From contig LEKQ01000001.1 of the NCBI GenBank assembly GCA_001443005.1, positions 594,542 through 658,541 of the forward strand: a stretch of DNA of 64,000 bases, given 5' to 3'. Shown here in pieces: positions 1-23,325 of this stretch. Each line of letters opens with the position of its first letter. The first letter of the stretch is position 1. The translations under genes and the position numbers were made by a program. The notes under the pieces are model-generated. The model was not told the DNA's origin. It saw only the letters and a list, made by a program, of their open reading frames with translations, and did no database searches. The DNA comes from a bacterium GBS-1 (GTDB lineage: Bacteria > Synergistota > GBS-1).

Positions 1-343
1 CAGCATCTGATAGCTTCTTAATCAAGCGAGTTCCGTTAGTTGTAGTTAAAACAGCGCGCTTTCCCTTTATCATATGAGCGTTCTCCATAACATCGGTAGG
101 AGAGTTATCGAAGTCGAACCCAGGTATCTTAGCCCCTCCCCTCTCCCCCATTAGAAGGATATCGGGGTTTTCCCTCTTTAAGGACTTAGCTTCCCTTATA
201 GAAGATGTGATAAAGAGCGAGTCCCCACCATAAGCGAAGAAAGTAACTATAGTGGATGTGGCTCTTATTACATCCAGAGCTATCCATAGAAAATCCTCCT
301 TAGGCAAGGGCTCTGAGAGAGAAGACAAAAGGTAAACCTTCAT
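1..343 (-). CDS. 2-phosphosulfolactate phosphatase (ComB) family protein, N-terminal part; the gene runs off the window
   Basis: My own minus-strand translation from the ATG at 343-341 reads MKVYLLSSLSEPLPKEDFLWIALDVIRATSTIVTFF...LLMGERGGAKIPGFDFDNSPTDV. The DV(I/L)RATST and GER.G..IPGFD..NSP blocks match my recollection of the ComB family. It is absent from the ORF track because the window edge truncates it. It starts 5 nt after the upstream stop, so it is probably in the same operon. Confidence 0.6.
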   Translation of the reverse strand, partial: MKVYLLSSLSEPLPKEDFLWIALDVIRATSTIVTFFAYGGDSLFITSSIREAKSLKRENPDILLMGERGGAKIPGFDFDNSPTDVMENAHMIKGKRAVLTTTNGTRLIKKLSDA

Positions 344-348
344 AAAAC

Positions 349-2013
349 TCAACCCCGCTTAAGGATGGCTCCCTGATCAGCCGAAGTGACTGCTTCAGCG
401 TACCGCGCTAAATATCCCCGGGTTACCCTCGGAGCGGGAGGCTTCCAGTTGGCTAGCCTCCTCTTTATCTCCTCTTCGCTCAGATGCAAATCAAGTTTCC
501 TCTCATCGATATTTATAGTTATGAGGTCCCCATCTTGAACGATAGCGATCGGCCCACCTGAAGCTGCCTCAGGAGAGACATGCCCCACACAGGGACCCCT
601 CGTGGATCCAGAAAACCTCCCATCGGTGACTAAAGCCGTGCTATCCCCTAAGCCCATACCGACGAGAACAGACGTAGCGGCAAGCATCTCTCGCATACCC
701 GGTCCCCCCTTAGGTCCCTCATAGCGTATAACGACTACATCTCCCCTCTGAACCTTGCCATCAAGAATGGCTTGAACTGCATTTTCACAGGACTCGAAAA
801 CCTTAGCTGGACCAGTGTGAACCCTCATGGAGGGCGAAACCGCAGTCTGCTTCACAACTGCACCATTGGGAGCCAGACTTCCCCTTAAAATTGCCAAGCT
901 ACCTTCCTCATGAACAGGGTTATCAAGAGAACGAATTACCTCTCTATTACGGTTTTTGGCTTTCTTCAATATATCCCTAAGAGTGCAAAGCATAACGCTC
1001 CTCTCATCTAAATGAAGTAGGGGAGAAAGCTCCTTCATAACAGCAGGAATCCCACCGGCATCATCCAGATCCTTAAGGGTATATGGACCAGAAGGCTTCA
1101 AATCAACCAAGTGCGGCGTAGTCCTACTTACCCTATCGAAGTCATCCAGTGTTATCCTTATGCCTATCTCATGGGCTATAGCGGGGATGTGAAGCAAAGC
1201 GTTGCTTGAACCTCCCACAGCCACAACCACTCGCATGGCATTCTCAAAGGATCTGTCTGTTATTATATCGGAAGGTTTAACACCTCTCTCTATGAGCCTC
1301 ATAACCTGAATCCCCGAAAGCTTGGCTTCCCTAAGCTTTTTAGAATATACAGCGTGAGTTGTCGCACAGCCCGGCAAAGTCAAGCCCAGGCTTTCAGCCA
1401 CACATGACATGGTGTTCGCAGTCCCCATCATGGAACATGAGCCTACAACAGGGCATATGCAATCCTCCATTTCCCTAAACTCCTCTTCTGTCAACAATCC
1501 ACGCCTATAAAGTCCCACAGCCTCCCTTATCTCATAGACAGCTAAGCTTCTACCCTTAAAAACCCCCGGGAGCATCGGTCCACCAGTAACCATGATAGAT
1601 GGAACGTTTATCCTTAACATCGCCATAAGCATACCAGGAACTATCTTATCACAGGCGGCTAAGAAGACCAAGCCATCTAACTGCTCCGCCTGAGCCACGA
1701 GCTCTATGGAATCAGCTATCACCTCTCTACTGGGTAGAACATAACACATTCCCTGATGCCCCTGGGCTATACCATCGCATATGGCGATGGTGTTAAACTC
1801 AAAGGGCACGCCCCCAGCCAACCTTATGCCCTCCTTAACCGCCTCAGCGATCTGGCGAAAATGCTTATGCCCGGGGTGCATCTCATTCCAAGAGTTCACA
1901 ACACCAACGAAAGGACGGTTGAATTCCTCATCGATCAACCCACAAGCTTTAAGAAGGGCACGCATACCAGCCCTATCTATACCCTCCACAACAACTCGAC
2001 TGCGCAATCCCAC
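349..2013 (-). CDS. IlvD/Edd-family Fe-S dehydratase no. 1 (sugar-acid or dihydroxy-acid dehydratase; substrate unknown)
   Basis: Blocks [44 protein letters not shown] and TDGRFSGST are present, and the three cluster cysteines are intact. The ORF-track ATG at 2094 overlaps the upstream gene by 49 nt and adds about 27 aa beyond where the in-window paralogue begins. An in-frame GTG at 2013 (or 2025), downstream of AGGGAGG at 2026-2032, is the more likely start. Confidence 0.88.
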
Positions 2014-2045
2014 GGCTTCATTCACCCTCCCTAAAAACAAAGGAA

Positions 2046-3329
2046 TCAGGGCTCCAAGACCGGAATGGTAATCAAGGCATTGGGTACAACCCAAACTTTA
2101 GCATCCTTGCCGAGCTCAAAGAACGCTCGCTCCAGCGCCTCTTCAACAGTAGGCTCGTACTCTAGAAATAGCTCCCTTAAGATAGGCTCTGGAACAGCTG
2201 TCCCAACCATAAAGATCTTAGCCCAGTTTAAGGCCTTAGCCAGAACGAAGGCCTTGTGCTCCCCCGGTTCAAATCCCTCGCGATAAGCCCTCTCTAAAGC
2301 TTCCACAGGTGACCTTACGCTTTTCATCCAGTTATAGTACCCCTCATGCCCTATACCATCCTCACACGCCGCAGGGATTATTATTATCCCCCCCTTTCTG
2401 ACCAAAGGACGAGGTGCAAATATCAGGTTATTAACCGCCCTGGTCGCCTGATATAGGTCCCTGTCCTTAGGATATCTGGGTATCGCTATGATAATATCCC
2501 CCTGCTGACTAGCTTTAACCTCATAAATCTCTTTCGCAAACCTCACGCCCGCATCGTGAGCTTTCACCGGATCACCAGCGAACACCCCAAGAAGGCGCTT
2601 ATCGTCATCGAGCACCACGTTAACTATGAAGTCAAGGCCAAGAAAGCCAGCCGCTTCCTCAAGAAAACGTCTAAAGAGGTTATCCTCGATCACACCCAAT
2701 CTGGTCTTAGGATGATCCAGCATGGCGATATTGTGCGTAGCAGAAATCGTGCGAACGCTTGCAACACCAACTGCAACGCTTTTAACCCCACCGCTGTACC
2801 CCGCAAAGAGGTGAGGTTCAATAACACCTGTCGCGATCCTTAAATCAGCCTCTGCTACGCTTTTATTTATCTCCACAGGTATGCCCTGAGATAGGGTGTT
2901 CCCCAAAAACTTAAGCCCCTCAGGGTTAAAGGCATTATGGTTCTCAACCTTGACTCTCCTTACCACCTCTTCACTATACATCTCCTTGAACTCCTCAATA
3001 GAATTGGGCCTGTGAGTACCAGTAGCAACAACTACACTGATATTCTCATCGGGTATCCCAGCTTCGTTAAGCTCCTTCAACAAAAGGGGAATGACTACCT
3101 CCTCACAAGCATATCTGGTTATATCGGTAGCTATGATGACCACCCTCTGCCCAGGCTTGGCTAAATCTCTTAGGGCTTTGCTCCCGATGGGATTTCTTAA
3201 GGCATCCTCAAAGGCAGAAACCACATCCTTAACCGGTGGGTACCTCTTCGGGTCAAGAACCCCCAAAAAATTCCTCTCAGGGATATTAAGCCTAAGAACA
3301 CTCCCCCTTAGGGGAATCTCGACTATCAA
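2046..3329 (-). CDS. LarA-like nickel-pincer (NPN) dependent 2-hydroxyacid racemase/epimerase homologue (DUF2088 family)
   Basis: 427 aa, the same size as lactate racemase LarA. The blocks [26 protein letters not shown] (the Lys corresponds to the NPN-tethering Lys of LarA) and SATHN are present where I remember the LarA catalytic His/Lys residues. Confidence 0.8.
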
Positions 3330-3358
3330 ATTAGATCAACCTGCCTTTCAGAGTACAA

Positions 3359-4417
3359 TCACATCCCCACAAGCTTTTTTGCCTCCTCTAAGGCCCTTAA
3401 GGCTCCTTCACCTAATGGTACGCCCTCCTTAAGCCTCTTGCACATGGTCCGATAGCTTCTCTCCCCCGGCAGAAGGATCTCATCCACGCCCTTAGCTCTC
3501 TTAGATCCCTTTATCATCTTTATGTATCCATCCACCTTTTCCTTGAACTCGTCAACCGGCATGAAGCTTTCGACTTTAATAGCCACCATAAAATTACCGA
3601 CGCCCATCGGCTTAGTAAAGTCCAAGAACATGGATTTTATATCTTTACCGTAAGAGGAACCAGTTAAGAGGCCACTTATTATGTCTATCACAATTGACAT
3701 CCCATATCCCTTGGCTCCCCCTAAGGGCAAAAGGGCTCCTTCTAGAGCCTTCTCCGGATCATCCGTGTGGTTTCCTTCATTATCCACAGCCCAACCGAAG
3801 GGGATTTTTTCACCCTTTCTTAAGCTCTCCTCTATCTTCCCTCTGGAAACAACGCTCGTTGACATATCCAAAACGATCGGTATCTCCCTACCTGCTGGTA
3901 TAGCAACTGCAAAGGGGTTCGTCCCTAGTACAGGCTCACAACCACCATGGGGAGCCATTAAAGCAGCTGTGTTAGTTAGAACGATGCCTATCATGTTTTC
4001 TCTCAGGGGCATCATCGCATAGTGACCCGCAATACCGATGTGATTCGTATTTCTAACGCCAGCGATAGCAACATCATTCTCCTTAGCCTTTTCTATACAC
4101 ATGGACATGGCCAGCTTTCCCGCAACCTGGCCAAGGCCATTATCTGCATCGATCAAGATAACGTTTCTTGATTCCCTTATAACCTTTATATTGGGTTTTG
4201 GATTTATAATCCCAAGCCTTATCCTCTTTACATAGGTGGGAAACCTAACTACACCGTGCGATTCTATTCCTCTTAAATCCGCTGCGACTATAGCCTCAGC
4301 TGTGTCAAGCGCATCCTGCTCTGGCACGCTCAAGCGCATCAGTACAGAGGAAAGGATCCCAATTAAATCCTCGTAAGGAACCAAAACCAAGGGAGCGAAA
4401 CCCTCCTTTAGGTTCAC
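3359..4417 (-). CDS. Ldh_2-family (malate/L-lactate/sulfolactate dehydrogenase type 2) oxidoreductase
   Basis: 352 aa with ADLRGIESHGVVRFPTYVKRI and NTNHIGIAGHYA blocks typical of the Ldh_2 family. That family includes ComC (R)-sulfolactate dehydrogenase, AllD and DlgD. Its start overlaps the upstream stop by 4 nt. Confidence 0.8.
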   Translation of the reverse strand: MNLKEGFAPLVLVPYEDLIGILSSVLMRLSVPEQDALDTAEAIVAADLRGIESHGVVRFPTYVKRIRLGIINPKPNIKVIRESRNVILIDADNGLGQVAGKLAMSMCIEKAKENDVAIAGVRNTNHIGIAGHYAMMPLRENMIGIVLTNTAALMAPHGGCEPVLGTNPFAVAIPAGREIPIVLDMSTSVVSRGKIEESLRKGEKIPFGWAVDNEGNHTDDPEKALEGALLPLGGAKGYGMSIVIDIISGLLTGSSYGKDIKSMFLDFTKPMGVGNFMVAIKVESFMPVDEFKEKVDGYIKMIKGSKRAKGVDEILLPGERSYRTMCKRLKEGVPLGEGALRALEEAKKLVGM

Positions 4418-5571
4418 ATCGTCGGACCTATTCTGGTTATCGCGAACTCACCATGACCAAGCTGCTCTGACTTAGTCATCTTTCCATTTATCACAGAAAG
4501 CATTTCCTTTATGATTCTGCGCCCAACCTCTTCAACCGTTTCGATCCCCAGTATTATAGTTCCTGCATTGATATCTATGTTATCGGACATCCTCTCCCAA
4601 GTCTTGGGATTACCAGTAATCTTTATAACCGGAGCAATGGGGCAACCAACGGGTGTTCCCCTTCCCGTGGAAAAGAGAACCAATTGAGCTCCACCTGCCA
4701 CCATGCCGCTCACCGACTGAACATCATGCCCTGGCGTATCCATTATCCACAGCCCTTTGCCCTTAGGCTGCTCCGCATATTCAACCACGCCTTGAATTGG
4801 AGACCTCCCAGCCTTAAGGATGCAACCAAGGGATTTTTCCTCTATCGTCGTTATACCACCTTCAATGTTGCCTCTCGTCGGCTGAGTCCCTCTTAAATCG
4901 ACGCCCATCTTCAAAGCGTCCTCTTCAGCTCTCTTTACGATCTCGTATATACGCTTAGCTACATCTTCGTTAACCGCTCGCTTGGCCAATATGTGCTCCG
5001 CCCCTATAAACTCGGGGGTCTCCGATAATATCGACGTTCCACCCGAGCTAACCACGAAGTCCGAAGCAACTCCCATGGCAGGGTTCGCCGCTATCCCAGA
5101 GGTGGCATCCGAACCACCGCACTCAAGAGCAATCACGATATGGGATAGATCTATGACCTCCCTCACCATCCCAGACAGATCCGAAAGCATGCTCTCAGCT
5201 ATGGCTATCCCCTTATCTATAGCCCTTAAGGTTCCACCTTCTTCCTGAATCACCAGGACCTCGACCTTCTTCCCCGACTCCGATATCCTCTCAGCCAACA
5301 TATAGGGATCGAGCTTCTCGCATCCGAGCCCAACCACCAGAACCGAAGCCACGTTGGGATTCTTACCAACCCCAACAAGGGTCCTCAGGGTTTGCTCATA
5401 GTCAACGCCAAGCTGTCCACATCCCTCATTATGAGTTATAGACACGCTTCCAGGAACACTCTTCGATATGGCTAAGACCACCTCATTGCTACAGACAACG
5501 CTCGAAAGTACAAGAAGGTGGTTTCTAATCCCAACTGAACCATCGGGCCTTATATAACCCCATAGTTTCAT
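4414..5571 (-). CDS. UxaA-family lyase/dehydratase, large (C-terminal-domain) subunit
   Basis: 385 aa. The THNEGCGQ block and overall layout match the C-terminal part of altronate/galactarate dehydratase. The same layout is found in SuyB of sulfolactate sulfo-lyase. It overlaps the small-subunit gene by 4 nt. Confidence 0.78.
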   Translation of the reverse strand: MKLWGYIRPDGSVGIRNHLLVLSSVVCSNEVVLAISKSVPGSVSITHNEGCGQLGVDYEQTLRTLVGVGKNPNVASVLVVGLGCEKLDPYMLAERISESGKKVEVLVIQEEGGTLRAIDKGIAIAESMLSDLSGMVREVIDLSHIVIALECGGSDATSGIAANPAMGVASDFVVSSGGTSILSETPEFIGAEHILAKRAVNEDVAKRIYEIVKRAEEDALKMGVDLRGTQPTRGNIEGGITTIEEKSLGCILKAGRSPIQGVVEYAEQPKGKGLWIMDTPGHDVQSVSGMVAGGAQLVLFSTGRGTPVGCPIAPVIKITGNPKTWERMSDNIDINAGTIILGIETVEEVGRRIIKEMLSVINGKMTKSEQLGHGEFAITRIGPTM

Positions 5572-5876
5572 CTCCCACCACCCTCTCCCTTAAGCAAGTC
5601 GCCTCTTCCCCTATTACTCACAACGTTATGAACATGCACCCAATCCCCAACCTCGATATCTCGCGTAGCCCTACCTATAACCTCACCGTACTTTATGACA
5701 TCGCCATCCTTTGGAATCCTCCTAACGGCAAACTTATGGCCAAAGGGTATGTCCGCGATCACCCTTACCTCCCTAGACTGGTTAGAGATTCTCACTAACG
5801 CTATCTCACCAGCTTGAATGTCTTCAAGAGCTGTAGCCACGTTATCTGCCCCATCAAGTAAAAGAGCCCTTTTCAT
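5568..5876 (-). CDS. UxaA-family small subunit (SAF / N-terminal domain)
   Basis: 102 aa. The DNVATALEDIQAGE...GHKFAVRRIPKGD.IKYGE pattern is typical of the SAF domain that forms the N-terminus of UxaA/GarD, or the separate SuyA subunit. Confidence 0.75.
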   Translation of the reverse strand: MKRALLLDGADNVATALEDIQAGEIALVRISNQSREVRVIADIPFGHKFAVRRIPKDGDVIKYGEVIGRATRDIEVGDWVHVHNVVSNRGRGDLLKGEGGGR

Positions 5877-5891
5877 AAATCAATCACCTTC

Positions 5892-7775
5892 CTATAAAAG
5901 CCAGTCTAACCCTAGCTCGATAAGCTTCCAAGGTTGGGGAACGCCCTCTTCATCCCAACCAGACATAAGGTAATAAATCCTCTTGGCCTCCTCGAACTCC
6001 TCCCTAGTAACGAATCTACCCTCATGGATACCCCCTCGGAGAGGCATGTACATCTTTTCTGCCAATCTATCCTCCTTCGAATCCACTCCACTTCTAACGT
6101 TAAACACCCTCATCATGTTCAGTCTTCTTTCCCCAACCTTCATGAGCTCCCATAGGCTCACTTCCCAACCGGTCACCGCGCTAACGGCTTCGACCACCTC
6201 ACTGTAGTTTAAACCCCTTGTAGGAGCCATGCAAAACATGCATATATCGAGGGAGTTCAACATGCTATAAGCTATCATAGTGTAATAGGCGAACCTAACT
6301 TTTCTACCATCAAGATCGAACCAAGGTAATCTCTCATTGATACCCAAGATAGCTATTCTTTCAAGGTTAACGTCTGGAGCGTCAGGACCTATGCTTGGAT
6401 CATGTTCACTCGCCATGTGATCCGCTCCTATAGGACAAACAGAATAGACCAAAGCAAGGGACCTTTTAACCCTCGGCTCATGAGCGGGATACTCAACCCC
6501 TTTGCATTCAACGGCATACCTCTCCGCGTTTCTCCCTATAGCTTGAGCAGCCCTCCTCGACCCTTCAGCCAGAAGTCTCCCTATACCCTCTTTCTTAACT
6601 ATCTTCTCAATAAGGGGTATTACCACATCCTTGTTACCAAACCTCAACTCAAGCCCATCGGTCTCTTCCTCAGTTAATATTCCGTTCTCATAGCAATCCA
6701 TTGCAAAAGCTATAGTTCCTCCCAGGGATATAGTGTCTATGGTGTACTTATTGCAGAGCTCTATAGCCTTAGAGACGATATAGGGGTCATCCACCCCTAT
6801 GTAGGAACCTAAAGCAGCCATAGATTCATACTCCAGGCTGGTGTACTCTTGATCTATCTCAAATGGTTCTCTCGCTCCAACCAACCTCTTACATCTTACA
6901 GGACAAGCATAACACCCGGTCTTTTTCACATCCATTATGGTCTCTATGAAGTCACCTGCAATCTTATCCACACCATCAAATACCCCGCTTCTCCAGTTAA
7001 AGGTGGGTAGCTGCCCACCTGTGCTGAAGAGCTTGGTGGTTATGGTTGTCCCCCACTGGTGCAATCTAAGCTGACCTGGGTAGCTCTTAAACCTGGAAGC
7101 AAAATCCTTGGCTATCTTTACCAACTTACCTTCATCCTTAAACTGGGGTTTTCTCGTCCCCTTAACCACAATAGCCTTCAGCTTTTTAGAACCCATAACT
7201 GCTCCAAGTCCGCATCTACCATGCATATCATGAATATCACAAGCTATGCTTGCAAACCTAACGAGGTTCTCCCCACCTGGGCCTATTCCAAGAATCCTCA
7301 AGCCCCTTTCTCCTAACTCTTTCTCAACCTCTCTAAGAACATCTGCGTTGTGCTTCCCCCAAAGATGCGAAGCATCTTTGATCTCCACATTTCCATCCTT
7401 AACCCAAAGATAAACGGGTTTTGAAGCCCTTCCTTTAACCACTATCGCGTCCAATCCCGCAGACTTTAAGGCCACACCCCAAAATCCACCGGCCTCGCTA
7501 TCAGCTATACCACCGGTCAACGGAGAGACTGAAACAGCCGAATGCCTTGCGAACCCCGGTAAGGGAGCACCCGTCACCACGCTGGGAGCGAAAACTATCA
7601 CGTTCTCAGGAGAATAGGCATCCGTTCCAGGTTTAACGTACTTCAATACATAATAACTTCCAAGACATCCCCCACCTATATATTTCCTGAAAAAGGCCTC
7701 TCCCGGACTCTCATATTCAACCGCCATATTAGAGAGATCCACATGGGCTATCCTATCCCAAAAGCCATATCCCAC
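5892..7775 (-). CDS. aor: tungsten-type aldehyde:ferredoxin oxidoreductase (AOR family)
   Basis: 627 aa. The N-terminus GYGFWDRIAHVDLS...KYIGGGCLGSYY resembles the AOR N-terminal domain, and GCYACPVRCKR is the [4Fe-4S] Cys motif. The start is a GTG 6 nt behind AAAGGGGTGA. Confidence 0.9.
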   Translation of the reverse strand: MGYGFWDRIAHVDLSNMAVEYESPGEAFFRKYIGGGCLGSYYVLKYVKPGTDAYSPENVIVFAPSVVTGAPLPGFARHSAVSVSPLTGGIADSEAGGFWGVALKSAGLDAIVVKGRASKPVYLWVKDGNVEIKDASHLWGKHNADVLREVEKELGERGLRILGIGPGGENLVRFASIACDIHDMHGRCGLGAVMGSKKLKAIVVKGTRKPQFKDEGKLVKIAKDFASRFKSYPGQLRLHQWGTTITTKLFSTGGQLPTFNWRSGVFDGVDKIAGDFIETIMDVKKTGCYACPVRCKRLVGAREPFEIDQEYTSLEYESMAALGSYIGVDDPYIVSKAIELCNKYTIDTISLGGTIAFAMDCYENGILTEEETDGLELRFGNKDVVIPLIEKIVKKEGIGRLLAEGSRRAAQAIGRNAERYAVECKGVEYPAHEPRVKRSLALVYSVCPIGADHMASEHDPSIGPDAPDVNLERIAILGINERLPWFDLDGRKVRFAYYTMIAYSMLNSLDICMFCMAPTRGLNYSEVVEAVSAVTGWEVSLWELMKVGERRLNMMRVFNVRSGVDSKEDRLAEKMYMPLRGGIHEGRFVTREEFEEAKRIYYLMSGWDEEGVPQPWKLIELGLDWLL

Positions 7776-7810
7776 AATTTATCACCCCTTTTAATGGCTT
7801 TAATATCAAA

Positions 7811-8812
7811 CTACTGAGGCAACCTTCTAATATCCCATATTTCCGGGTTAGCGATATTATCGGGCCTCTCTCCCCTTAATACAGATATGACGTTTTTACA
7901 AACCATTTTCGCCATATTAGAGAGCGTTTCTTCAGTATGGGCTGCCATATGAGGCGTAGCAACAACATTATCTAAAGTTAAAATGGGCTCATCAACGGAT
8001 GGGGGCTCTGGATCGAAAACATCCATACCAGCACCTGCTATGACCCCATCCCTAAGAGCCCTATAAAGTGCCCTTTGATCTATCACCGAACCCCTTGCAG
8101 TGTTAACAATTATAGCGTTTCTCTTCATCATGGAGAGCTCCCTTTCGCCTATGAACTTCTCGTTCTCCTTAGTAGCAGGTATGTGTATCGTTATAAAATC
8201 CGCATTTCTAAGAAGATACTCCAGATCTCCAACAAGCTCAGTATCCTCTAACCCCTCTTGCCTAAGAAGCTCTTCGTTAATATATGGATCATAGCCTATA
8301 ACTTTCATAGAAAAACCATACTTGCATATCCTGGCAACCTTTCTTCCGATGTTGCCTAAACCTATAACTCCAAGGGTCTTTCCTGAAAGCTCAAAGCTCT
8401 TAACCTGAAGCCTATAGTTGTAGTTTCCATAAACCCTAAGCTGAACACCCGCATCCCATATGTGCTTCGCAACCGCCATCATCAGACATACGGTATGCTC
8501 AGCAACCGCATTAGCATTCGAGCCCGGTGCATAAACCACTGGAATGCGGTAGGCATTGGCTGCTTCTAAATCCACGTTATCAACCAAAGCCCCATGTTTA
8601 CCTATGACAACGCATCTTTTAGCGGCTTCGATTATACTTCTACCTATGTAGGGATGAACCCTCACGATTATGCCATCATAATCCATAACCTTTTTCAAGA
8701 GATATTCCTCGTCAAGGCTTTCCGCAACATCAACCTTTATCTCCGCTTCTTCCAACATCTTAACCCCATCTGGGTGAATTTCCTGCATCAAAAGGACCCT
8801 TCTTTCAGCCAT
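7811..8812 (-). CDS. D-isomer-specific 2-hydroxyacid dehydrogenase (glycerate, hydroxypyruvate or phosphoglycerate dehydrogenase-like)
   Basis: NAD fold GVIGLGNIGRKVA, NTARGSVID, and catalytic His in TPHMAAHTEE. I place the start at the ATG at 8812 behind GAGGTGG; the ORF-track start at 8827 is a GTG inside that Shine-Dalgarno sequence. Confidence 0.85.
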   Translation of the reverse strand: MAERRVLLMQEIHPDGVKMLEEAEIKVDVAESLDEEYLLKKVMDYDGIIVRVHPYIGRSIIEAAKRCVVIGKHGALVDNVDLEAANAYRIPVVYAPGSNANAVAEHTVCLMMAVAKHIWDAGVQLRVYGNYNYRLQVKSFELSGKTLGVIGLGNIGRKVARICKYGFSMKVIGYDPYINEELLRQEGLEDTELVGDLEYLLRNADFITIHIPATKENEKFIGERELSMMKRNAIIVNTARGSVIDQRALYRALRDGVIAGAGMDVFDPEPPSVDEPILTLDNVVATPHMAAHTEETLSNMAKMVCKNVISVLRGERPDNIANPEIWDIRRLPQ

Positions 8813-8839
8813 GATACCCCACCTCACGTAAAGGCAGTC

Positions 8840-9703
8840 TTAAAGTACCTTCCTTAAGATCTTCGGAATCTCCGATAGCTTAAAGGCTATCTTAGCTCCA
8901 GCATCCTCTAAAACCCTTAGCTTGCTATCCGCACTTCCCGTTTCCCCTTGTATAATGGCCCCAGCATGCCCCATTCTCTTACCCGGCGGAGCCAGTCTAC
9001 CCGCAATGAAGGCTATGACTGGTTTCCTCATGCGCCTTATAACAGCGCTCGCATCCTCCTCACGGCTTCCTCCTATCTCTCCCACGATAACTACAGCCTC
9101 AGTATCGTTATCCCTATCAAACATTTCCAAGATATCAGCTATGTCTACCCCGGTAACTGGATCAGCTCCAATACCCACAACGCTGCTTTCACCGAAACCC
9201 TCATCGTTAAGATATCCAGAGACCTCATAAGAAAGCGTCCCGCTCCTTGAGATGACCCCTACCTTCCCCGGTTTAAACATATTGCCAGGCATTATCCCAA
9301 GCTTACCTACACCGGGAGAGATTACGCCAGGGGTTGTGGGACCAAGCATTACGACGCCCCTCTTCCTCGCAACCTCCCTCATCTCCATGGCATCAGCTAT
9401 GGGAACATGCTCGGGAATAACTACAACAAGCTTTATACCAGCATCTATAGCTTCAAACACAGCATCCTTCGCAGCAAAGGGTGGAGCAAATATAACCGTA
9501 GCATTAACGCCAAACCTCTCTACCGTCTCCTTAACATCATCAAACACTGGAACACCATATACCGTCTCTCCCTTTCTCCCAGGCGTTACTCCTGCCAAGA
9601 TCTTCGTACCATACTCCAACATCCACCTCGTCTGTATGCTTCCCACCCTACCAGTTATACCCTGGACGATAGCCCTGGTCTCATAAGTTAAAAGTATTGC
9701 CAT
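8840..9703 (-). CDS. sucD: succinate--CoA ligase (ADP-forming) alpha subunit-like
   Basis: 287 aa, collinear with SucD. Blocks QGITGRVG, VISRSGTLSYE and the phosphohistidine loop RMGHAGAII are present. Confidence 0.85.
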   Translation of the reverse strand: MAILLTYETRAIVQGITGRVGSIQTRWMLEYGTKILAGVTPGRKGETVYGVPVFDDVKETVERFGVNATVIFAPPFAAKDAVFEAIDAGIKLVVVIPEHVPIADAMEMREVARKRGVVMLGPTTPGVISPGVGKLGIMPGNMFKPGKVGVISRSGTLSYEVSGYLNDEGFGESSVVGIGADPVTGVDIADILEMFDRDNDTEAVVIVGEIGGSREEDASAVIRRMRKPVIAFIAGRLAPPGKRMGHAGAIIQGETGSADSKLRVLEDAGAKIAFKLSEIPKILRKVL

Positions 9704-9708
9704 AACCT

Positions 9709-10860
9709 TTATCCCCTCTCCTTCTGAGATAAAATCTCCTTAAGCAGATCGATCGCTTTCTCCGTATGGAAAGTTTTTATCAAGTGCACTCCAGCGCTAC
9801 TTAATATCTCCCAGGCCTCTTCCTGTTGATTCCCAACCGCCTTAACCACGATGGGGACATCTTTCGCAAAGCTCTCCCTAGCCTGTTTAACTCCATTAGC
9901 TGCTTCTATAAGGGAGTTCACCCCACCATAAAGATTAATGAGAATTGCCTTTATATTGCCTCTCCTTAAAACGAGCCTTATTGAATCGTTTATGAGCTTA
10001 GCTGTTATTCCACCGCCAGTCTCAAGAAAGTTGGCCGGCCTTAAGCCCTCATCAGCCATCAAATCTACAGTATACATACCCAAGCCCGCACCGCTCGATA
10101 TGAGCCCTATATCTCCATCAAGCACAACATAGGACACACCTATCTCTTTCGCTTCTCTTTCCATATAATCCTCCACGTCGACCTTTTCCAGCTTAGAGAA
10201 ATACTCCTGCCTAAATAAAGCATTATCATCTACTTCTACCTTAGCATCAGCCGCAACGATTCTTCCATCCTTTAAAAGGCATAAAGGATTTATTTCCAAG
10301 ATCGTTAAATCATAGCGAACGAAGGCATCGAACATAGAAGCAGCTATGTGAGAAAGCTTTACCAAAAGCTCCCTCTCAAAGCCCTTTCCCCTCAAAGCTG
10401 ACCTTATCTCATACTCCCTTAAAGCTTCGCTCGGATATTTATCTATTCTCACGAGCCTCTCGGGAAAGAGCTTAACTATCTCCTCTATATCCATGCCACC
10501 GGCATCGCAGAACATGAAGGTACGCTTACCAGATCGCGTATCTATGGTTATCCCCATATATATCTCCCTAGCTATGTCTAAAGCCTCCTCTACAAGGAGC
10601 TTCTTAACTTTAAAACCCCTTATCTCCTTACCAAAAAGCTCAGAAGCAACCTCTTGAGCGGTTTTAGGATCATCCGCAGGCTTAATACCACCCGCCTTAC
10701 CCCTACCACCTATGGGGACCTGTGCCTTAAGCACAACCTTCTTCCCTATCCTCTCGAAAGCGCCGGAAGCTTCCGACGGAGCGCTAATTACTACACCCTC
10801 GGGAACATCTATGCCGATCAGCTTTAAAAAATCCTTCCCCTGATATTCTAAAAGCCTCAT
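9709..10860 (-). CDS. sucC: succinate--CoA ligase (ADP-forming) beta subunit-like (ATP-grasp)
   Basis: Blocks MRLLEYQGKDFL, GGRGKAGGIK, EINPL and NLYGGV are collinear with SucC. I prefer the ATG at 10860 to the ORF-track start at 10893, which overlaps the upstream gene. Confidence 0.85.
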   Translation of the reverse strand: MRLLEYQGKDFLKLIGIDVPEGVVISAPSEASGAFERIGKKVVLKAQVPIGGRGKAGGIKPADDPKTAQEVASELFGKEIRGFKVKKLLVEEALDIAREIYMGITIDTRSGKRTFMFCDAGGMDIEEIVKLFPERLVRIDKYPSEALREYEIRSALRGKGFERELLVKLSHIAASMFDAFVRYDLTILEINPLCLLKDGRIVAADAKVEVDDNALFRQEYFSKLEKVDVEDYMEREAKEIGVSYVVLDGDIGLISSGAGLGMYTVDLMADEGLRPANFLETGGGITAKLINDSIRLVLRRGNIKAILINLYGGVNSLIEAANGVKQARESFAKDVPIVVKAVGNQQEEAWEILSSAGVHLIKTFHTEKAIDLLKEILSQKERG

Positions 10861-10870
10861 CTCTCTTCCC

Positions 10871-11410
10871 TCACCCTTTCTTGAATATATCAAAGGCAGC
10901 CCTTAAGGCTTTTAAGTTTAAATCCCTAGTAGCAGGAGGTACCCTATTAAGCATGGCAGCCTCGAGCGATTCCCTTTTTACTATTCCTGTTAATGAGACC
11001 AAAACCCCCAAAGCCACTATGTTCGCAGATAAAGGCTTACCTGTCTCCCTTATGGATATCTCTGTTATAGGAAGCTCGTATATCTCAACGTCAGAGCGAG
11101 GTTTGACCTCCTTGATATAAAGTGTATCAATGATGATTAATCCTCCCTCTTTGACGCTCTCACCGTATTTATCCAGCGCATCTTGAGTCATAGCAAGTAA
11201 TATATCTGGTCTTTCGATCTCTGGGTAGTTTATCTCCTCATCGCTTATGATGATCTCGGACCTACTTGCACCACCTCTTGCCTCGGGACCATAGGACTGA
11301 TTATGCGTAGCGTTCTTTCCCTCATAAATCACCGCAGCCTCCGCAAGGATAATCCCTGCGAGAACCAGACCTTGACCACCGTAACCGCTTAACACTATCT
11401 CCTTCCTCAT
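10871..11410 (-). CDS. 2-oxoacid:ferredoxin oxidoreductase gamma subunit
   Basis: 179 aa with the SGYGGQGLVLAG block typical of OFOR gamma subunits. It directly abuts the beta-subunit gene (0-nt gap). Confidence 0.88.
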   Translation of the reverse strand: MRKEIVLSGYGGQGLVLAGIILAEAAVIYEGKNATHNQSYGPEARGGASRSEIIISDEEINYPEIERPDILLAMTQDALDKYGESVKEGGLIIIDTLYIKEVKPRSDVEIYELPITEISIRETGKPLSANIVALGVLVSLTGIVKRESLEAAMLNRVPPATRDLNLKALRAAFDIFKKG

Positions 11411-12235
11411 TTAACCTTCCCCACCTTCAGCTAATTTTCGCCTTAACTCCTCATAAAGCTCCGTATACTCTCTCTTCTCCTTATTAACGAAGAGCTCGCC
11501 TATCAAAAACTTATCCTTCATCTCCTCGAGACTATACCTTTGAGCCTGTTGAACTAAAACAGCATGTTCCTTCTGCCACATCAGCATCTCATAAGGAGTT
11601 CTCATCCTATTTCTTCTCCCATAACCTACAGGACATTGAGAGACAACCTCAATGAAGCTAAAGCCCTTATGAGCGATGGCCTTAGCTATAAGATCAGCCG
11701 TTAACTGAATATGATAAACGGTGCTTCTTGCGATGAAGGTCGCTCCTGCCGCCTCAACAAGCTTGCATATGTCGAAGGATGGTTCAATGTTGCCGTAGGG
11801 AGCTGTTGTAGCATAGGTACCTTGAGGGCTTAAAGGGGAATACTGCCCACCTGTCATACCATATATACTGTTGTTTATAAGTATTGTAGTTATGTCTATG
11901 TTCCTTCTAGCAGCGTGGATCAGATGATTTCCCCCTATCGCCGCACCATCGCCGTCTCCCGTAATAACTATCACCTTCATATCGGGACGCATCAACTTAA
12001 AGCCTGTAGCGAAAGCTAAAGTCCTACCGTGAGTCGTTTGAATGGTGTTAAAGTCCACTATCACGTTGGTCCTTGCCGAACAGCCGATCCCGGTGAAAAG
12101 GACGATTTCATCCTTGCTCAACCCAAGCTTATCAACCGCCATGATCAAAGCCCTCACCACTGAACCGTTACCACAGCCCGGACACCATATATGAGGAAGC
12201 TTGCTTAACCTTAGATACTTCTTTATATCAAGCAT
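11411..12235 (-). CDS. 2-oxoacid:ferredoxin oxidoreductase beta (TPP-binding) subunit
   Basis: Blocks WCPGCGNG and ITGDGDGAAIGGNH (TPP/Mg site). The start ATG at 12235 lies within an ATGCTTGA overlap with the alpha stop, behind AAAGAGGTG. The ORF-track start at 12262 is probably too long. Confidence 0.88.
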   Translation of the reverse strand: MLDIKKYLRLSKLPHIWCPGCGNGSVVRALIMAVDKLGLSKDEIVLFTGIGCSARTNVIVDFNTIQTTHGRTLAFATGFKLMRPDMKVIVITGDGDGAAIGGNHLIHAARRNIDITTILINNSIYGMTGGQYSPLSPQGTYATTAPYGNIEPSFDICKLVEAAGATFIARSTVYHIQLTADLIAKAIAHKGFSFIEVVSQCPVGYGRRNRMRTPYEMLMWQKEHAVLVQQAQRYSLEEMKDKFLIGELFVNKEKREYTELYEELRRKLAEGGEG

Positions 12236-13373
12236 GGCTAAACACCTCTTTAATCGCATCAACTATCTCCCAAGGAGATATCATCTTGCCATCAACCCTA
12301 TTAATTCTAACAGCTTTCCTACAAATGCATCTTTCCACCTCTCCTACAAGCTGCCCCATGTTCATCTCAGGCACGACAACAACCTTAGCTCTTTTCGCAT
12401 ACCCCTCTACAACTTCGCCAGGGAAAGGCCAAAGGGTTTGTAACTGCAAAAGCCCAGCTCTTATCCCGCCCTCCCTCAGCATGTTAACTGCATCCTTGGC
12501 AGACCTCGCTGTACACCCATAGGCTACGATAAGCACGTCAGAATCCTCAACCCTATAGGTCTTATAATAAGTTATCTCCTTCCTATAAAACTCTATCTTC
12601 TTGTGAAGTCTCCTTATAAGCTCATTCGCCACCTTATGGTTATATGTTGCTGGGAAGCCCTCCTCATCATGTACATTACTAGTTACGTGATATCTGTACC
12701 CCTTACCGCGATAGGCGAAATCAGGAACACCGTCAGGCCCAGCGGCAAAAGGCTTATATTGCTCAGGCGGCAAGTTAGTAACTCTCCTATTAACTATCCT
12801 TATCCTGCTCGGATCTGGCAAAGTTACCTTCTCCCTTACGTGACCAACCACCGCATCGGAAAGAAGGATCACCGGATTTCTAATGAGCTCAGATATATTA
12901 AAGGCCTCTATAGTTAACTCAAAGGCCTCTTGAACCGTAGCAGGGCATAAGACAACTATAGGATGGTCTCCATGCGTTCCCCACCTCGCCTGCATGACAT
13001 CTCCCTGCGCAGGAAGGGTCGGTAAACCCGTGCTCGGCCCACCCCTTTGCACATCCACTATGACGCAAGGAATGTCAACTATTGTGGCATATCCCAAGTT
13101 CTCCTGCATTAAGGTAAATCCAGGACCACTCGTTGCAGTCATGGCCTTAAAACCAGCCATAGATGCTCCTATAACCGCAGCGATGCTAGCTATCTCATCC
13201 TCCATCTGAATGAATACCCCACCTACCTGAGGCATCCTAAGAGCCATCATCTCGGCTATCTCTGTAGCTGGAGTTATCGGATAACCCGCGAAGAACCTCA
13301 CTCCAGCTAAGATGGCTGCCTCAGCTATAGCCTCATTACCTTGCATGAATCGCACATCCTCCTTAAGGCTCAT
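12228..13373 (-). CDS. 2-oxoacid:ferredoxin oxidoreductase alpha subunit
   Basis: 381 aa with GNEAIAEAAILAGVRFFAGYPITPATEI and the general KorA/PorA layout. It overlaps the delta gene by 4 nt. Confidence 0.88.
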   Translation of the reverse strand: MSLKEDVRFMQGNEAIAEAAILAGVRFFAGYPITPATEIAEMMALRMPQVGGVFIQMEDEIASIAAVIGASMAGFKAMTATSGPGFTLMQENLGYATIVDIPCVIVDVQRGGPSTGLPTLPAQGDVMQARWGTHGDHPIVVLCPATVQEAFELTIEAFNISELIRNPVILLSDAVVGHVREKVTLPDPSRIRIVNRRVTNLPPEQYKPFAAGPDGVPDFAYRGKGYRYHVTSNVHDEEGFPATYNHKVANELIRRLHKKIEFYRKEITYYKTYRVEDSDVLIVAYGCTARSAKDAVNMLREGGIRAGLLQLQTLWPFPGEVVEGYAKRAKVVVVPEMNMGQLVGEVERCICRKAVRINRVDGKMISPWEIVDAIKEVFSHA

Positions 13374-13597
13374 TCCTCTTCCCCCTCCCGCACCTCAACA
13401 GCATAATCAGGACACCTGAGCTCACAGCTTCTACAACCTACACACATCTCCTCGCGCATAACCCTAACCTTACCATCGCTTGTAAACTCAAAAACCTTCT
13501 TAGGGCAAAACTCTACACATATACCACAAGACTTACACCACTTAGTATTCAGAACAACCTTAAACCTCTTAGTCAAGGCAATCACCCCTTCTTTCAA
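13370..13597 (-). CDS. 2-oxoacid:ferredoxin oxidoreductase delta subunit (2x[4Fe-4S] ferredoxin)
   Basis: 75 aa with two CxxCxxCxxxCP motifs, CKSCGICVEFCP and CVGCRSCELRCP. Confidence 0.85.
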   Translation of the reverse strand: MKEGVIALTKRFKVVLNTKWCKSCGICVEFCPKKVFEFTSDGKVRVMREEMCVGCRSCELRCPDYAVEVREGEEE

Positions 13598-13602
13598 AGC
13601 GC

Positions 13603-13803
13603 TTAGCCGCCCGACATGATATATGTAACTACTATCTCGTCACCATCCCTAACTATCCTCGAGCTATACTCCCTCCTGGGCAAGACATCCCTATTCAAGA
13701 ACACAGTCATATAAGAGATATCATAACCAAGCTTCTCTAAAAGCTCCCCCACGGTCATCTCACCTTCCAAATTAACTTCCCTATTATTCACCTTAACAAG
13801 CAT
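13603..13803 (-). CDS. ThiS/MoaD-family ubiquitin-like sulfur-carrier protein ending in Gly-Gly
   Basis: MLVKVNNREVNLEG...GDEIVVTYIMSGG* has the size, N-terminal pattern and C-terminal GG typical of ThiS/MoaD. The start is ambiguous: TTG at 13821, ATG at 13812 or ATG at 13803. I prefer 13803. It ends 5 nt upstream of the OFOR delta gene. Confidence 0.65.
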   Translation of the reverse strand: MLVKVNNREVNLEGEMTVGELLEKLGYDISYMTVFLNRDVLPRREYSSRIVRDGDEIVVTYIMSGG

Positions 13804-13825
13804 CTCCTCCATTTCCTCCAAATAA

Positions 13826-13863
13826 ATTATACTCAGTATACTGTCTACTTCCTAAATCATCAA
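13826..13863 (-). promoter_or_regulatory. candidate internal sigma-70 promoter upstream of the ThiS-like/OFOR genes
   Basis: Read on the minus strand: TTGATG (13863-13858), a 17-nt spacer, then TATACT (13840-13835), followed by a second TATAAT (13831-13826) and GGAGG. It lies in the 75-nt gap after dehydratase no. 2. Confidence 0.35.
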
Positions 13864-13896
13864 GGCCACCCTTAAAAGGTATCTTTGGGTTTTTCT

Positions 13897-15552
13897 TCAC
13901 TCCAGGGATCTTCTAACCGCTCCCTTTGACGCGCTCTCAACGAAAAGCCTATAATATCTCAGGTAGCTGTTTTCAGGTATAAAGGAGCGATTGACCTCCT
14001 GTACCTCTCCTTTTCTCCTTTTATATTCTTCCTCTGATATCAATAGGTCTACCCTCTTCCTCCCGAGGTCTATCCTTATAACATCACCATCCCTAACTAT
14101 GGAGAGCGGTCCTCCTGCCGCCGCCTCAGGGGAAACATAAGCTATAGAGATGCCGTAAGAAGCCCCGCTAAGCCTGCCATCGGTTATGAGTGCAACGTTC
14201 TTATATCTATTTATTATCTCAACACACCTATGAAGCTCCCTCATGCCCGGACCTCCACAAGGCCCCTCGTATCTTATGATGATAACCTCCCCATCCTTAA
14301 GGTCATTGCTTGATGCATACTCCATAAACTCATCCTCCGAGTTAAATACCCTAGCTACCCCTTCAAAGGGATCCTTCAAAACGTCCACCAGCGCAGACAC
14401 CTTAAGCAGGGCTCCATCAGGAGCAAGGTTTCCTCTCAAGACTTTTATAGCTCCACCCTTAGCTATGGGGTCGGAAACCGATCTTATGATTGACTTCAAA
14501 GGCCTGAATCCCTCACTCTTCCCAATGATATCCCTCCAGGTATCGTTAAGGACCGTCTTTCTATCAAGGTTAAGATAATCCTTTAGTTCTCTTATCAATG
14601 CAACCACTCCGCCAGAAAAATACAGATCTATAACGGTATTCTCGTCGCTATTGGGAGTAACTTGAGCAATCAGGGGAACACTCTCGCTTATCCTCTCAAA
14701 ATCCTCCATGCTTATCTCTATCCTTAGCTCATGAGCTATGGCAGGAATGTGAAGAACAGCGTTTAGAGAACCACCTATAGCCATAACTACAGCTATTGCA
14801 TCCTCAAAAGCTTCCCTCGTCATTATCGCCGAAGGTTTCAAGCCCATCTCTATTAAGCGAACAGCTTGCTCTCCGGTTAATCTAGCTAAGTTATATCTCT
14901 GACTTGTTCCCGCTGGAGTTAAAGCTGACCCTGGCAATCCCACACCCAAAACCTCAGCTACTATACACATGGTATTTGCCGTTCCCAAAAATGGGCAAAC
15001 ACCTGGACCAGGATAATACCTCTCCGTGATGTCAAGCAGCTCATCCTCGGAGACCTTACCCTCAAGAAAGCTCCTTCTCGCCATCTTGGACTCCTTAGGC
15101 TTGATATAGTTGCACATCGGTCCTGCTCCCAACCAAATAGAGGGAAGGTCTATCCTAGCCATAGCCATAAGCATACCAGGGACGATCTTGTCGCAGGAGG
15201 AGAGAAAAACCAAACCATCGAATATATCGTGTCCCTTCACCATAGATTCTATCGAATCAGCGATCAACTCCCTGCTTGGGAGGCTATATTTCATGCCCTT
15301 ATGCCCCTGAGCTATACCATCGCATATAGCTATCGTGTTGAACTCGATTGGAACTCCACCAGCCTTGTAAACCCCTTCTTTTACCTTCTCGGCCAGGTCT
15401 CTTAAAGGGACATGCCCAGGGACTATTTCGTTCCAAGAGTTGACTATACCTACTATGGGCTTGTTAAGATCCGCTCGGGAAAAACCACAAGAAATTAGAT
15501 GCCCCTTTATAAGCTGTCTAACGTAGTTCGGAAAAGCACTCAATCGGTTCAT
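13897..15552 (-). CDS. IlvD/Edd-family Fe-S dehydratase no. 2 (sugar-acid dehydratase candidate)
   Basis: 551 aa with [44 protein letters not shown] and TDGRLSGAS blocks. Confidence 0.88.
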   Translation of the reverse strand: MNRLSAFPNYVRQLIKGHLISCGFSRADLNKPIVGIVNSWNEIVPGHVPLRDLAEKVKEGVYKAGGVPIEFNTIAICDGIAQGHKGMKYSLPSRELIADSIESMVKGHDIFDGLVFLSSCDKIVPGMLMAMARIDLPSIWLGAGPMCNYIKPKESKMARRSFLEGKVSEDELLDITERYYPGPGVCPFLGTANTMCIVAEVLGVGLPGSALTPAGTSQRYNLARLTGEQAVRLIEMGLKPSAIMTREAFEDAIAVVMAIGGSLNAVLHIPAIAHELRIEISMEDFERISESVPLIAQVTPNSDENTVIDLYFSGGVVALIRELKDYLNLDRKTVLNDTWRDIIGKSEGFRPLKSIIRSVSDPIAKGGAIKVLRGNLAPDGALLKVSALVDVLKDPFEGVARVFNSEDEFMEYASSNDLKDGEVIIIRYEGPCGGPGMRELHRCVEIINRYKNVALITDGRLSGASYGISIAYVSPEAAAGGPLSIVRDGDVIRIDLGRKRVDLLISEEEYKRRKGEVQEVNRSFIPENSYLRYYRLFVESASKGAVRRSLE

Positions 15553-15588
15553 TCAAGATCAACTCCCTCCATGAAGCGAAAATGGCTT

Positions 15589-16479: not shown

Positions 16480-16498
16480 AACACCCCCTTAAGGATCT

Positions 16499-18028: not shown

Positions 18029-18043
18029 CTCAAGCTTTAAGAA

Positions 18044-20276: not shown

Positions 20277-20300
20277 CTCGATCCCTCCTCAAAGCAGAAC

Positions 20301-20783: not shown

Positions 20784-20813
20784 CCTGAACTAAATCGCCT
20801 CCCCCTTAAAACA

Positions 20814-20845: not shown

Positions 20846-20869
20846 CCATCTCTATCTAAGGGTCCAAAC

Positions 20870-23320: not shown

Positions 23321-23325
23321 CTATC

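Follow-up and report, generated by a model that had tools for sequence, protein, structure and literature searches.

A predicted nickel-pincer racemase or epimerase of an uncharacterized LarA subfamily, linked to a split UxaA-type dehydratase in a hot spring bacterium

Homologs of the lactate racemase LarA (LarAHs) form one of the few families of nickel-pincer enzymes, and roughly half of them are without an assigned substrate. We asked what reaction might be served by one such homolog, a 427-residue protein of the LarA superfamily (DUF2088) encoded on the minus strand at positions 2046..3329 of a 64,000-nucleotide stretch of DNA, hereafter the window (contig LEKQ01000001.1 of assembly GCA_001443005.1, positions 594,542 to 658,541). 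Its source, GBS-1, is a thermophilic bacterium from the 77°C communities of Great Boiling Spring, and the nearest relatives of the window are Synergistetes and Bacillota/Peptococcaceae metagenome-assembled genomes (MAGs). The protein is predicted to be a 2-hydroxyacid racemase or epimerase that depends on NPN, a nickel-pincer nucleotide, as its cofactor. On balance, and by a modest degree, we favor a composite reading in which it acts on C2 of a dianionic hydroxy acid and feeds a stereospecific dehydratase or dehydrogenase encoded in the same string of genes.

A preliminary description of this locus had noted a LarA-like open reading frame (ORF), and that observation stands: the ORF is confirmed as a real LarA-type gene. 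Its frame is unbroken and begins at a TTG codon, with an AGG-rich stretch ~11 nucleotides upstream. Pfam recovers the domain architecture of the superfamily (Lar_N, 2.2e-67; LarA_C, 3.2e-19), and the best sequence matches in the PDB are LarA of T. thermosaccharolyticum (8.6e-73), Mar2 (3.3e-71), and LarA of L. plantarum (3.8e-69), so that the predicted family match is far beyond chance. An AlphaFold2 model built from an alignment of 15 sequences of the clade (pLDDT, 88.4; pTM, 0.87) was superposed by Foldseek on 5huq, 2yjg, and 9eia with TM-scores of ~0.91 to 0.92 and root mean square deviations of 2.2 to 2.5 Å. Judged from this modeled fold and from aligned residues, the protein is a member of the LarA superfamily in all respects except a K298R replacement.

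In LarA enzymes, inversion at C2 proceeds through a hydride passed transiently from the 2-hydroxy acid to the cofactor, and two histidines alternate as acid and base. We assigned residues by alignment to L. plantarum LarA (5huq/6c1w) and checked their conservation in the 15-member clade and in the best 120 homologs (identity down to 47%), from a family of at least 120 cluster representatives. The three motifs singled out in the preliminary description, THRP, EPH, and the lysine of GGVKS, all align with functional residues of LarA. His106 in GTHRP (codon 3012..3014, minus strand, as are all codons given here) corresponds to the catalytic acid/base His108, His173 in EPH (2811..2813) to the second catalytic histidine, His174, and Lys183 in GGVKS (2781..2783) to Lys184, the covalent tether of NPN. 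His199 in ATHN (2733..2735) corresponds to the nickel ligand His200, and D69 and R72 correspond to LarA D72 and R75. Alignment had been proposed as a check for lost histidines or lysines; H106, H173, K183, and H199 are all retained. Together with D69 and R72, these residues are unchanged in the clade and in 120/120 homologs, an invariance that argues for selection on NPN chemistry.

The departure from LarA lies in Thr296-Arg297 (codons 2439..2444), a family-specific pair aligned with LarA Val297-Lys298. Lys298 is counted among the catalytic residues of LarA (PMC7583248), and the window protein has an arginine in its place. R297 is invariant across the clade, and nearly all 120 homologs read T/S-R where LarAH groups 1, 4, 5, and 6 carry Q/V/T-K. 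This arginine is one of the observations that would fit a locus with no active NPN enzyme, whether a relic, a noncatalytic DUF2088 protein of the kind found in groups 12, 13, and 16, which lack catalytic residues (PMC7583248), or a protein in a genome without larBCE. The surroundings of the gene would fit as well, since no larB, larC, or larE was found within ~74 kb, in agreement with the preliminary description. A Pfam scan of 50 window ORFs, from which large housekeeping genes were left out, returned no AIRC, DUF111, or PP-loop LarE type; tblastn searches of the window with L. plantarum LarB, LarC1, LarC2, and LarE (locus L103) returned only noise (E ≥ 0.3), and in a positive control the same LarC probe picked up the distant LarC of Sulfitobacter at 2e-20; the 10 kb of the source contig to the left of the window held no larBCE either. 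However, across ~100 loci with relatives, the 10-kb surroundings hold no lar biosynthesis genes, so that unlinked larBCE genes are the rule for this family and provide no argument against NPN use. With an intact frame, a confident model, and both catalytic histidines and the NPN-binding residues invariant in homologs down to 47% identity, we consider an inactive protein very unlikely.

Substrate specificity in this superfamily has been related to four positions, F175/F176/W358/T359 of LarA1 (PMC11770544), which read L-F-H-K in the window protein. L174 and F175 come straight after His173, and the histidine and lysine belong to a G-x-H-K motif, G356-E357-H358-K359 (codons 2253..2264), in what has been called the "second acid group" pocket. 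Histidine or glutamine followed by lysine at W358/T359 is the malate racemase pattern, and the lysine is thought to bind the second carboxylate (PMC11770544, PMC7583248). The motif is common to the window protein and LarAH groups 4, 5, and 6; among the 120 homologs, those at least 54% identical have G-E-H-K and a large group at ~50% identity has mostly G-E-Q-K. The signature of the subfamily can be written D-R-H-H-L-F-K-H ... Y-Q-x-T-R ... G-E-H-K.

Curated models place the protein near malate racemases and inside none of the described groups. The best NCBIfam match was the LarAH6-family malate racemase model NF052593 (400.8 bits, cutoff 500), followed by the LarAH5-family malate racemase model NF052595 (360.1 bits, cutoff 462) and the lactate racemase model (360 bits, cutoff 460), and the score fell under every LarAH cutoff, outside the curated equivalogs. 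Identity to reference sequences of LarAH groups 1, 4, 5, and 6, taken from Dataset S2 of PMC7583248, was 28 to 37% and roughly equal for each group, and the motifs of the clade were not found in the part of that data set in which they were looked for. By these comparisons, the protein is not a member of the MAR (malate racemase) LarAH6, MAR LarAH5, LarA, LarAH10, or GntE-type equivalog families, and it appears to belong to a distinct, uncharacterized subfamily among the G-x-H-K members of the superfamily. Since H358-K359 lies in that motif and the best model is a malate racemase, we expect the substrate to be dianionic.

The same residues bear on the proposal, made in the preliminary description, that the enzyme might be a C2-epimerase of an aldonate. 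An epimerase of the gluconate or mannonate type could serve the IlvD/Edd-family gene that adjoins on the downstream side (349..2013, minus strand), a sugar-acid module with a second IlvD, a DHDPS-family aldolase, an FGGY kinase, and a short-chain dehydrogenase (SDR) lies 10 kb upstream, and LarAH10, a non-GntE LarAH, epimerizes gluconate weakly. However, the gluconate epimerase (GntE) pattern at the four specificity positions is E-V-A-H (PMC11770544), not L-F-H-K; hexonate-epimerase-type models score only 51 to 91 bits (NF052594, 51; the LarAH14/15/16 model, 91); GntE2 (4nar) matches the N-terminal domain alone, at 9.7e-16; and Lys359 suggests that the substrate carries another anionic group. 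The neighboring IlvD passes the dihydroxy-acid dehydratase equivalog cutoff (TIGR00110, 775 bits versus 618), and about half of the clade loci lack it. Aldonate epimerization is thus, in our judgment, highly improbable.

The partner that stays with the gene is a dehydratase of the UxaA/GarD family split into two polypeptides, predicted from a SAF-domain small subunit of 102 residues (5568..5876, minus strand; Pfam SAF, 2.6e-11) and a large catalytic GD_AH subunit of 385 residues (4414..5571, minus strand; GD_AH_C, 1.3e-100; GD_AH_second, 2e-41), whose genes overlap by 4 nucleotides. The only PDB relative of the large subunit is GarD (6u7l, 1e-64), which is also its only NCBIfam match (253 bits, cutoff 731). 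We annotated fetched loci of relatives by homology to the window proteins and by precomputed Pfam calls. The SAF+GD_AH pair adjoins the LarA gene in every lineage in which LarA is at least 58% identical (loci L006, L008 to L012, L014, and L040) and does so through several different gene orders; it was not found in any homolog locus with LarA below 50% identity. Within the clade, the counterparts are 55 to 62% (SAF) and 62 to 80% (GD_AH) identical. A homolog of the second recurrent partner, a predicted D-isomer-specific 2-hydroxyacid dehydrogenase (2-Hacid_dh; 7811..8827, minus strand), is present in most loci with LarA at least 40% identical. In a sister group at ~50% identity, the genes found with LarA encode 2-Hacid_dh, TctABC, an HpcH/HpaI aldolase, and a member of the DHDPS family, and in Moorella also a GarR-like dehydrogenase; such families are used for keto-deoxy dicarboxylates. 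TRAP, TAXI-TRAP, or TTT transporters adjoin clusters of the LarA clade.

The immediate neighbors are less constant. As first described, the LarA gene does lie between an upstream Ldh_2-family gene (3359..4417, minus strand; Pfam, 1.8e-124) and the downstream IlvD gene, and the start of the latter is most likely the GTG at 2013, behind the Shine-Dalgarno sequence GGGAGGG and without overlap with the LarA gene. Calling both neighbors sugar-acid enzymes was loose, given the dihydroxy-acid dehydratase assignment of IlvD and an Ldh_2, a predicted L-2-hydroxyacid dehydrogenase, whose nearest matches are archaeal dehydrogenases of malate and sulfolactate (best NCBIfam match, L-sulfolactate dehydrogenase, 329 bits versus a cutoff of 500; PDB matches 1v9n, a P. 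horikoshii "malate dehydrogenase," 3.8e-87, and 2x06, ComC, 8.2e-85). Ldh_2 was present only in the organism of the window and in L006, and IlvD in about half of the lineages, where it is syntenic in L006 and L009 to L011. The conserved partners are the split dehydratase and the D-2-hydroxyacid dehydrogenase, not the adjacent Ldh_2. The earlier idea that LarA supplies a stereoisomer to neighboring enzymes fits the conserved linkage, then, with the receiving enzymes changed to SAF+GD_AH and 2-Hacid_dh.

Two further observations were made while surveying these loci. An apparent fusion of LarA to a SAF domain in L008 (P0010, 542 residues, 10001..11629) was considered as Rosetta-stone evidence and rejected as a probable frameshift artifact, because its neighbors (GD_AH, DctM, and NMT1_3) are fragmented on the same long-read contig. 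Another, only remotely related DUF2088 type ("lactate racemase domain-containing," ~420 to 437 residues) stands beside UxaA-family dehydratases in Sporomusa termitida pSPTER (L091, 6335..7618), a Sulfitobacter plasmid (L094, 8224..9537), and two Bacillota MAGs (L012, 7071..8330; L040, 2177..3427). It is 31% identical to the window LarA over only 59 residues, is followed by LarC in Sulfitobacter, and occurs alongside a window-type LarA in both Bacillota MAGs; it may be the "second LarAH" of 79% of group 5 neighborhoods.

The simplest candidate for a dianionic substrate is malate, and a plain malate racemase would allow both D- and L-malate to be used through 2-Hacid_dh or Ldh_2. Besides H358-K359 and the LarAH6-family top model, the context offers some support: the Ldh_2 resembles the P. 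horikoshii enzyme, dicarboxylate-type transporters adjoin, L008 has a malic enzyme 6 kb upstream, and 2-Hacid_dh, a relative of phosphoglycerate dehydrogenase, glyoxylate reductase, and McyI by Pfam, with every NCBIfam match under its cutoff, has 1wwk and McyI as its nearest PDB entries. McyI acts on malate and 3-methylmalate. However, the protein is only 36% identical to Mar2 and falls short of the LarAH6 cutoff, T-R replaces the Q-K of malate racemases, and L-F replaces the Y-K of Mar2. A racemase would also be redundant where D- and L-specific dehydrogenases are both present, and the linkage is to a UxaA-type dehydratase, for which malate has no beta-leaving group. We regard malate racemization as unlikely, though the strongest of the alternatives considered here.

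Enzymes of the UxaA/GarD/SuyB type take the C2 proton and expel the leaving group at C3, and they would do so on one stereoisomer only. Since the dehydratase would accept a single stereoisomer, a racemase or epimerase encoded beside it would widen the range of usable isomers. In the reading that we favor, a TRAP- or TTT-type transporter would bring in a 2-hydroxy acid that carries another anionic group and is of the hydroxy-dicarboxylate type (malate, tartrate, or aldarate-like), and the LarA enzyme, with His106 and His173 alternating as acid and base in C2 inversion, would turn the imported stereoisomer into the isomer taken by the split dehydratase, the D-specific 2-hydroxyacid dehydrogenase, or both. 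The dehydratase would carry out an alpha,beta-elimination to a 2-oxo-3-deoxy acid; a 2-oxo acid would then be oxidized by a four-subunit ferredoxin oxidoreductase, and the resulting acyl-CoA would yield ATP through a SucCD-type ligase. NPN would be made by larB, larC, and larE encoded elsewhere in the genome. The aldehyde:ferredoxin oxidoreductase (AOR), IlvD, and Ldh_2 would be accessory or lineage specific. Candidate substrates include tartrate isomers, pentarates, hexarates, and related hydroxy-dicarboxylates. Tartrate is apparently poor for Mar1, judged from a 2024 table in which the LarAH27 column gives a malate kcat/K_M equal to that of Mar1; Mar1 is not an ortholog of the window protein.

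Several observations weigh against this assignment. In L013, a LarA of 55% identity occurs with a 2-oxoacid:ferredoxin oxidoreductase (OFOR), a succinyl-CoA synthetase-like ligase, 2-Hacid_dh, and AOR, and no SAF or GD_AH gene is present within the 11-kb contig. Packed operons of thermophiles can hold unrelated genes, and the string considered here includes a photolyase. The H/Q-K rule is empirical, and Mar1 is a poor malate racemase despite having this motif. Lys298 has become Arg297, a substitution that appears conservative. No larBCE was found in the window or the 10 kb to its left. Members of the subfamily are known from sequence alone, and the modules of this dehydratase family in Salmonella, C. 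hydrogenoformans, and E. albertii are uncharacterized.

A more specific proposal can be made with less assurance, and we put it forward as tentative, somewhat short of an even chance. It holds that the T-R/G-E-H-K subfamily carries out a C2 inversion outside the NPN reactions described so far, either epimerization of an aldarate or other polyhydroxy-dicarboxylate or inversion of another dianionic, beta-substituted hydroxy acid, and that this inversion is the first, obligatory step of a new ferredoxin-linked fermentative route in thermophilic anaerobes, which would run from the epimerase through the split UxaA-type dehydratase and the 2-oxoacid:ferredoxin oxidoreductase to the SucCD-type ligase.

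One dianionic, beta-substituted hydroxy acid deserves separate treatment, since the cluster resembles the set of enzymes known from sulfolactate metabolism. That validated set consists of SuyA, SuyB, SlcC, and ComC, with the IlvD/Edd family of the sulfo-Entner-Doudoroff dehydratase alongside, and all of its families occur in the cluster (small and large UxaA-type subunits, PF00389/PF02826, PF02615, and PF00920), with the split layout of SuyAB matched by SAF+GD_AH. The window LarA might accordingly racemize 3-sulfolactate for a SuyAB-like (R)-sulfolactate sulfo-lyase, in place of or in addition to the SlcC/ComC two-dehydrogenase relay, while AOR would oxidize sulfolactaldehyde. A ComB-family 2-phosphosulfolactate phosphatase after IlvD on the source contig, the L-sulfolactate dehydrogenase top match of Ldh_2 (under cutoff), a ferredoxin-coupled aldehyde oxidoreductase implicated in the Desulfovibrio DF1 pathway (PMC6278857), and the location of LarAH group 5 genes within suyAB/sulfonate clusters are all in line with this idea. 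However, the large subunit is 38% identical to our SuyB proxies, which come from loci L101 and L102 and were identified from context and PMC6278857, not being the validated sequence itself; this is no nearer than single-chain altronate-dehydratase-family proteins (38 to 42%), as against 55 to 64% for a separate split-UxaA group, and the SAF subunit has only a local match of 35 to 45% to the SuyA proxies. The LarA is 28 to 35% identical to group 5, ComB and Ldh_2 are not kept across the clade, and neither the window nor the flanking regions of L001 and L006 to L014 contained a TauE, sulfite reductase, or sulfonate-type transporter gene. Desulfitobacterium has a window-type dehydratase as well as SuyB (PMC6278857), which suggests distinct functions, and sulfite inhibits LarA (PMC12611868). 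The distance to the SuyB proxies and the lack of sulfite-handling genes weaken this candidate to the point that we think it improbable, and the window seems to carry a system parallel to LarAH5-SuyAB, not its ortholog.

For group 5 itself the sulfolactate hypothesis fares better. LarAH group 5 (Mar1) is associated with COG2721 dehydratases in 100% of cases, Mar1 has a K_M for malate of 55 mM, and its authors doubt that malate is the native substrate (PMC7583248). Many group 5 hosts are sulfate or sulfite reducers, and in these hosts SuyB shares >70% identity with the validated enzyme of Desulfovibrio DF1 (PMC6278857). At L101 (8332..12738), the order is GntR, SuyA-like, SuyB-like, LarAH, and aldehyde dehydrogenase, next to a sugar ABC transporter and sulfo-sugar genes (a transaldolase family member, an isomerase, and DUF4867); at L102 (4983..11269 and 20127..21269), it is TauE, Ldh_2, DhpA-like, Aldedh, and LarAH, with a sulfonate-type ABC transporter and SuyA/B-like genes nearby. 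Because the context is a sulfonate cluster at 2/2 loci, the K_M of Mar1 is high at 55 mM, and SuyB occurs in the same hosts, group 5 LarAHs are probably NPN-dependent sulfolactate racemases acting before SuyAB, with the caveat that the sulfite inhibition of LarA noted above (PMC12611868) applies here as well. Our literature search found nothing linking sulfolactate with lactate racemase or NPN.

The nearest relatives of the window dehydratase form a widespread split-UxaA group, which carries the IMG name "altronate dehydratase large subunit." The large subunit is 55 to 64% identical to this group, with 55 to 59% for the "UxaA family hydrolase" proteins of C. hydrogenoformans, of E. albertii, and of a MAG of Desulfitobacterium sp. 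In C. hydrogenoformans (L098, 7652..14873) and on an E. albertii plasmid (L090, 6657..11324), the split UxaA genes form a module together with those for a KdgT permease and a PrpR-like sigma-54 activator, and the Carboxydothermus module adjoins a DUF1537 acid-sugar kinase and PdxA2; the window-type dehydratase of the Desulfitobacterium sp. MAG stands in a context unlike these two. Salmonella STM0649-51/STM0652, listed as uncharacterized, is apparently equivalent, matched by published description only. A search for true suyAB on plasmids and chromids yielded matches in Paracoccus and Sulfitobacter that proved to be single-chain altronate-dehydratase-family genes.

The remaining genes of the cluster complete the co-directional, tightly packed order OFOR (delta, alpha, beta, gamma), SucC-like, SucD-like, 2-Hacid_dh, AOR, SAF, GD_AH, Ldh_2, LarA, and IlvD, all on the minus strand. 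The predicted four-subunit 2-oxoacid:ferredoxin oxidoreductase (10871..13597; delta-ferredoxin ORF, 13370..13597; Pfam and NCBIfam) is closest to 2-oxoglutarate-type enzymes, and KOR-type OFORs recur in L009 to L011 and L013. A predicted ADP-forming acyl-CoA ligase (8840..10893; NCBIfam) comprises a SucD-like subunit (8840..9703) that passes TIGR01019 (377.8 versus 353.2 bits) and a SucC-like subunit (9709..10893) just under NF001913 (357.7 versus 370 bits); SucCD-like ligases recur in L006, L012, and L013. AOR, predicted to be of the tungsten type (5892..7775; AFOR_N/AFOR_C; nearest PDB entry, P. furiosus AOR 1aor, 6.9e-109), recurs in L006 and L013. A scan for promoters and terminators that might delimit the operon performed no better than on shuffled sequence.

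Beyond the left edge of the window, IlvD is followed after a 5-nucleotide gap by the ComB-family 2-phosphosulfolactate phosphatase gene (L001, 12987..13724; PF04029, under NCBIfam cutoffs), which is not kept in relatives, and the same string continues with a DUF1722/2-thiouracil-desulfurase-like gene and then the photolyase. At the other end, a ThiS/MoaD-like ORF of 72 residues with a GG end (13603..13821, minus strand; PF02597 by JGI annotation) lies between a second IlvD and the OFOR delta-ferredoxin. That second IlvD-family dehydratase, under the ilvD cutoff, belongs to the upstream acid-sugar module (13897..23109, minus strand), which also contains the DHDPS-family aldolase, an FGGY kinase near gluconokinase, an SDR near gluconate 5-dehydrogenase/KduD, TctABC, and an iron-type alcohol dehydrogenase near lactaldehyde reductase; farther upstream (23326..29096) come another TctABC set and a pair made up of UPF0261 and a PEP-hydrolase-like protein. 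Across the whole window (1..64000), plus-strand GC skew is strongly and uniformly negative (cumulative, -7.2) and the minus strand carries nearly all genes, which places the window within one replichore with an extreme gene-strand bias.

That LarA homologs serve pathways for sugar acids and diacids, and that one group is tied to COG2721 dehydratases, has already been published, and the locus does not represent a new type of system; what is new is an uncharacterized LarA subfamily with a probably new substrate. The gene marks a sizeable, sequence-distinct subfamily of at least 120 cluster representatives with the Thr-Arg pair. The current residue rule would call this subfamily "malate racemase" and its conserved partners point elsewhere, which advises caution with other H/Q-K LarAHs. 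Identity of the substrate would test the reach of the published specificity rule and whether arginine can replace the "catalytic" Lys298; it would also assign a role to the orphan split UxaA-type dehydratase present in Carboxydothermus and apparently in Salmonella (STM0649-51), and define how hot spring fermenters obtain ATP from an acidic hydroxy acid.

Among characterized enzymes, the mechanistic archetype is L. plantarum LarA (5huq), on which the model superposes with a TM-score of 0.92 and a deviation of 2.3 Å, and whose NPN-binding and catalytic histidine residues align with those of the window protein. The two are 36% identical and differ in the pocket, where the hydrophobic F-F/W-T of LarA becomes L-F/H-K, in the change of K298 to arginine, and in the larBCE operon, which adjoins larA in L. 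plantarum (L103) and not in the window. Mar2 of LarAH6 (T. thermosaccharolyticum; 6d6z, 7s91) shares the fold, domain order, catalytic histidine pair, tether lysine, nickel-ligand histidine, and Arg75, as well as the G-x-H-K motif in helix 14. However, at 36% identity it has Y-K after the catalytic histidine where the window protein has L-F, and Q-K298 in place of T-R, and its usual neighbor is malic enzyme instead of a UxaA-type dehydratase.

Mar1 of LarAH5, from Desulfitobacterium hafniense and many sulfate or sulfite reducers, is closer in context: it has G-x-H-K, linkage to COG2721 (the UxaA/SuyB family), and often TctABC, and the window too has a COG2721 gene nearby, with SAF+GD_AH two genes upstream and kept in the clade. 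Membership of the window protein in group 5 is ruled out, despite this common context, by its 28 to 35% identity to nine group 5 sequences, no nearer than to groups 1 and 6; group 5 reads Q/H-F and Q-K instead of L-F and T-R, and at two loci its dehydratase partner is a SuyB-type enzyme that shares 38% identity with that of the window. On the dehydratase side, GarD galactarate dehydratase and UxaA altronate dehydratase share the SAF and GD_AH domains with the window enzyme, which differs in being split into two polypeptides, in its identity of only ~37 to 42%, and in a score far under the GarD cutoff. Finally, the sulfolactate system SuyAB plus SlcC/ComC has the same side-by-side arrangement of small and large UxaA-type subunits, a D-2-hydroxyacid dehydrogenase, and Ldh_2, and the same logic of stereo-inversion ahead of a stereospecific elimination. 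It differs from the window in that the dehydratase there is no SuyB ortholog (38%) and that inversion would be carried out by an NPN racemase in place of a redox relay.

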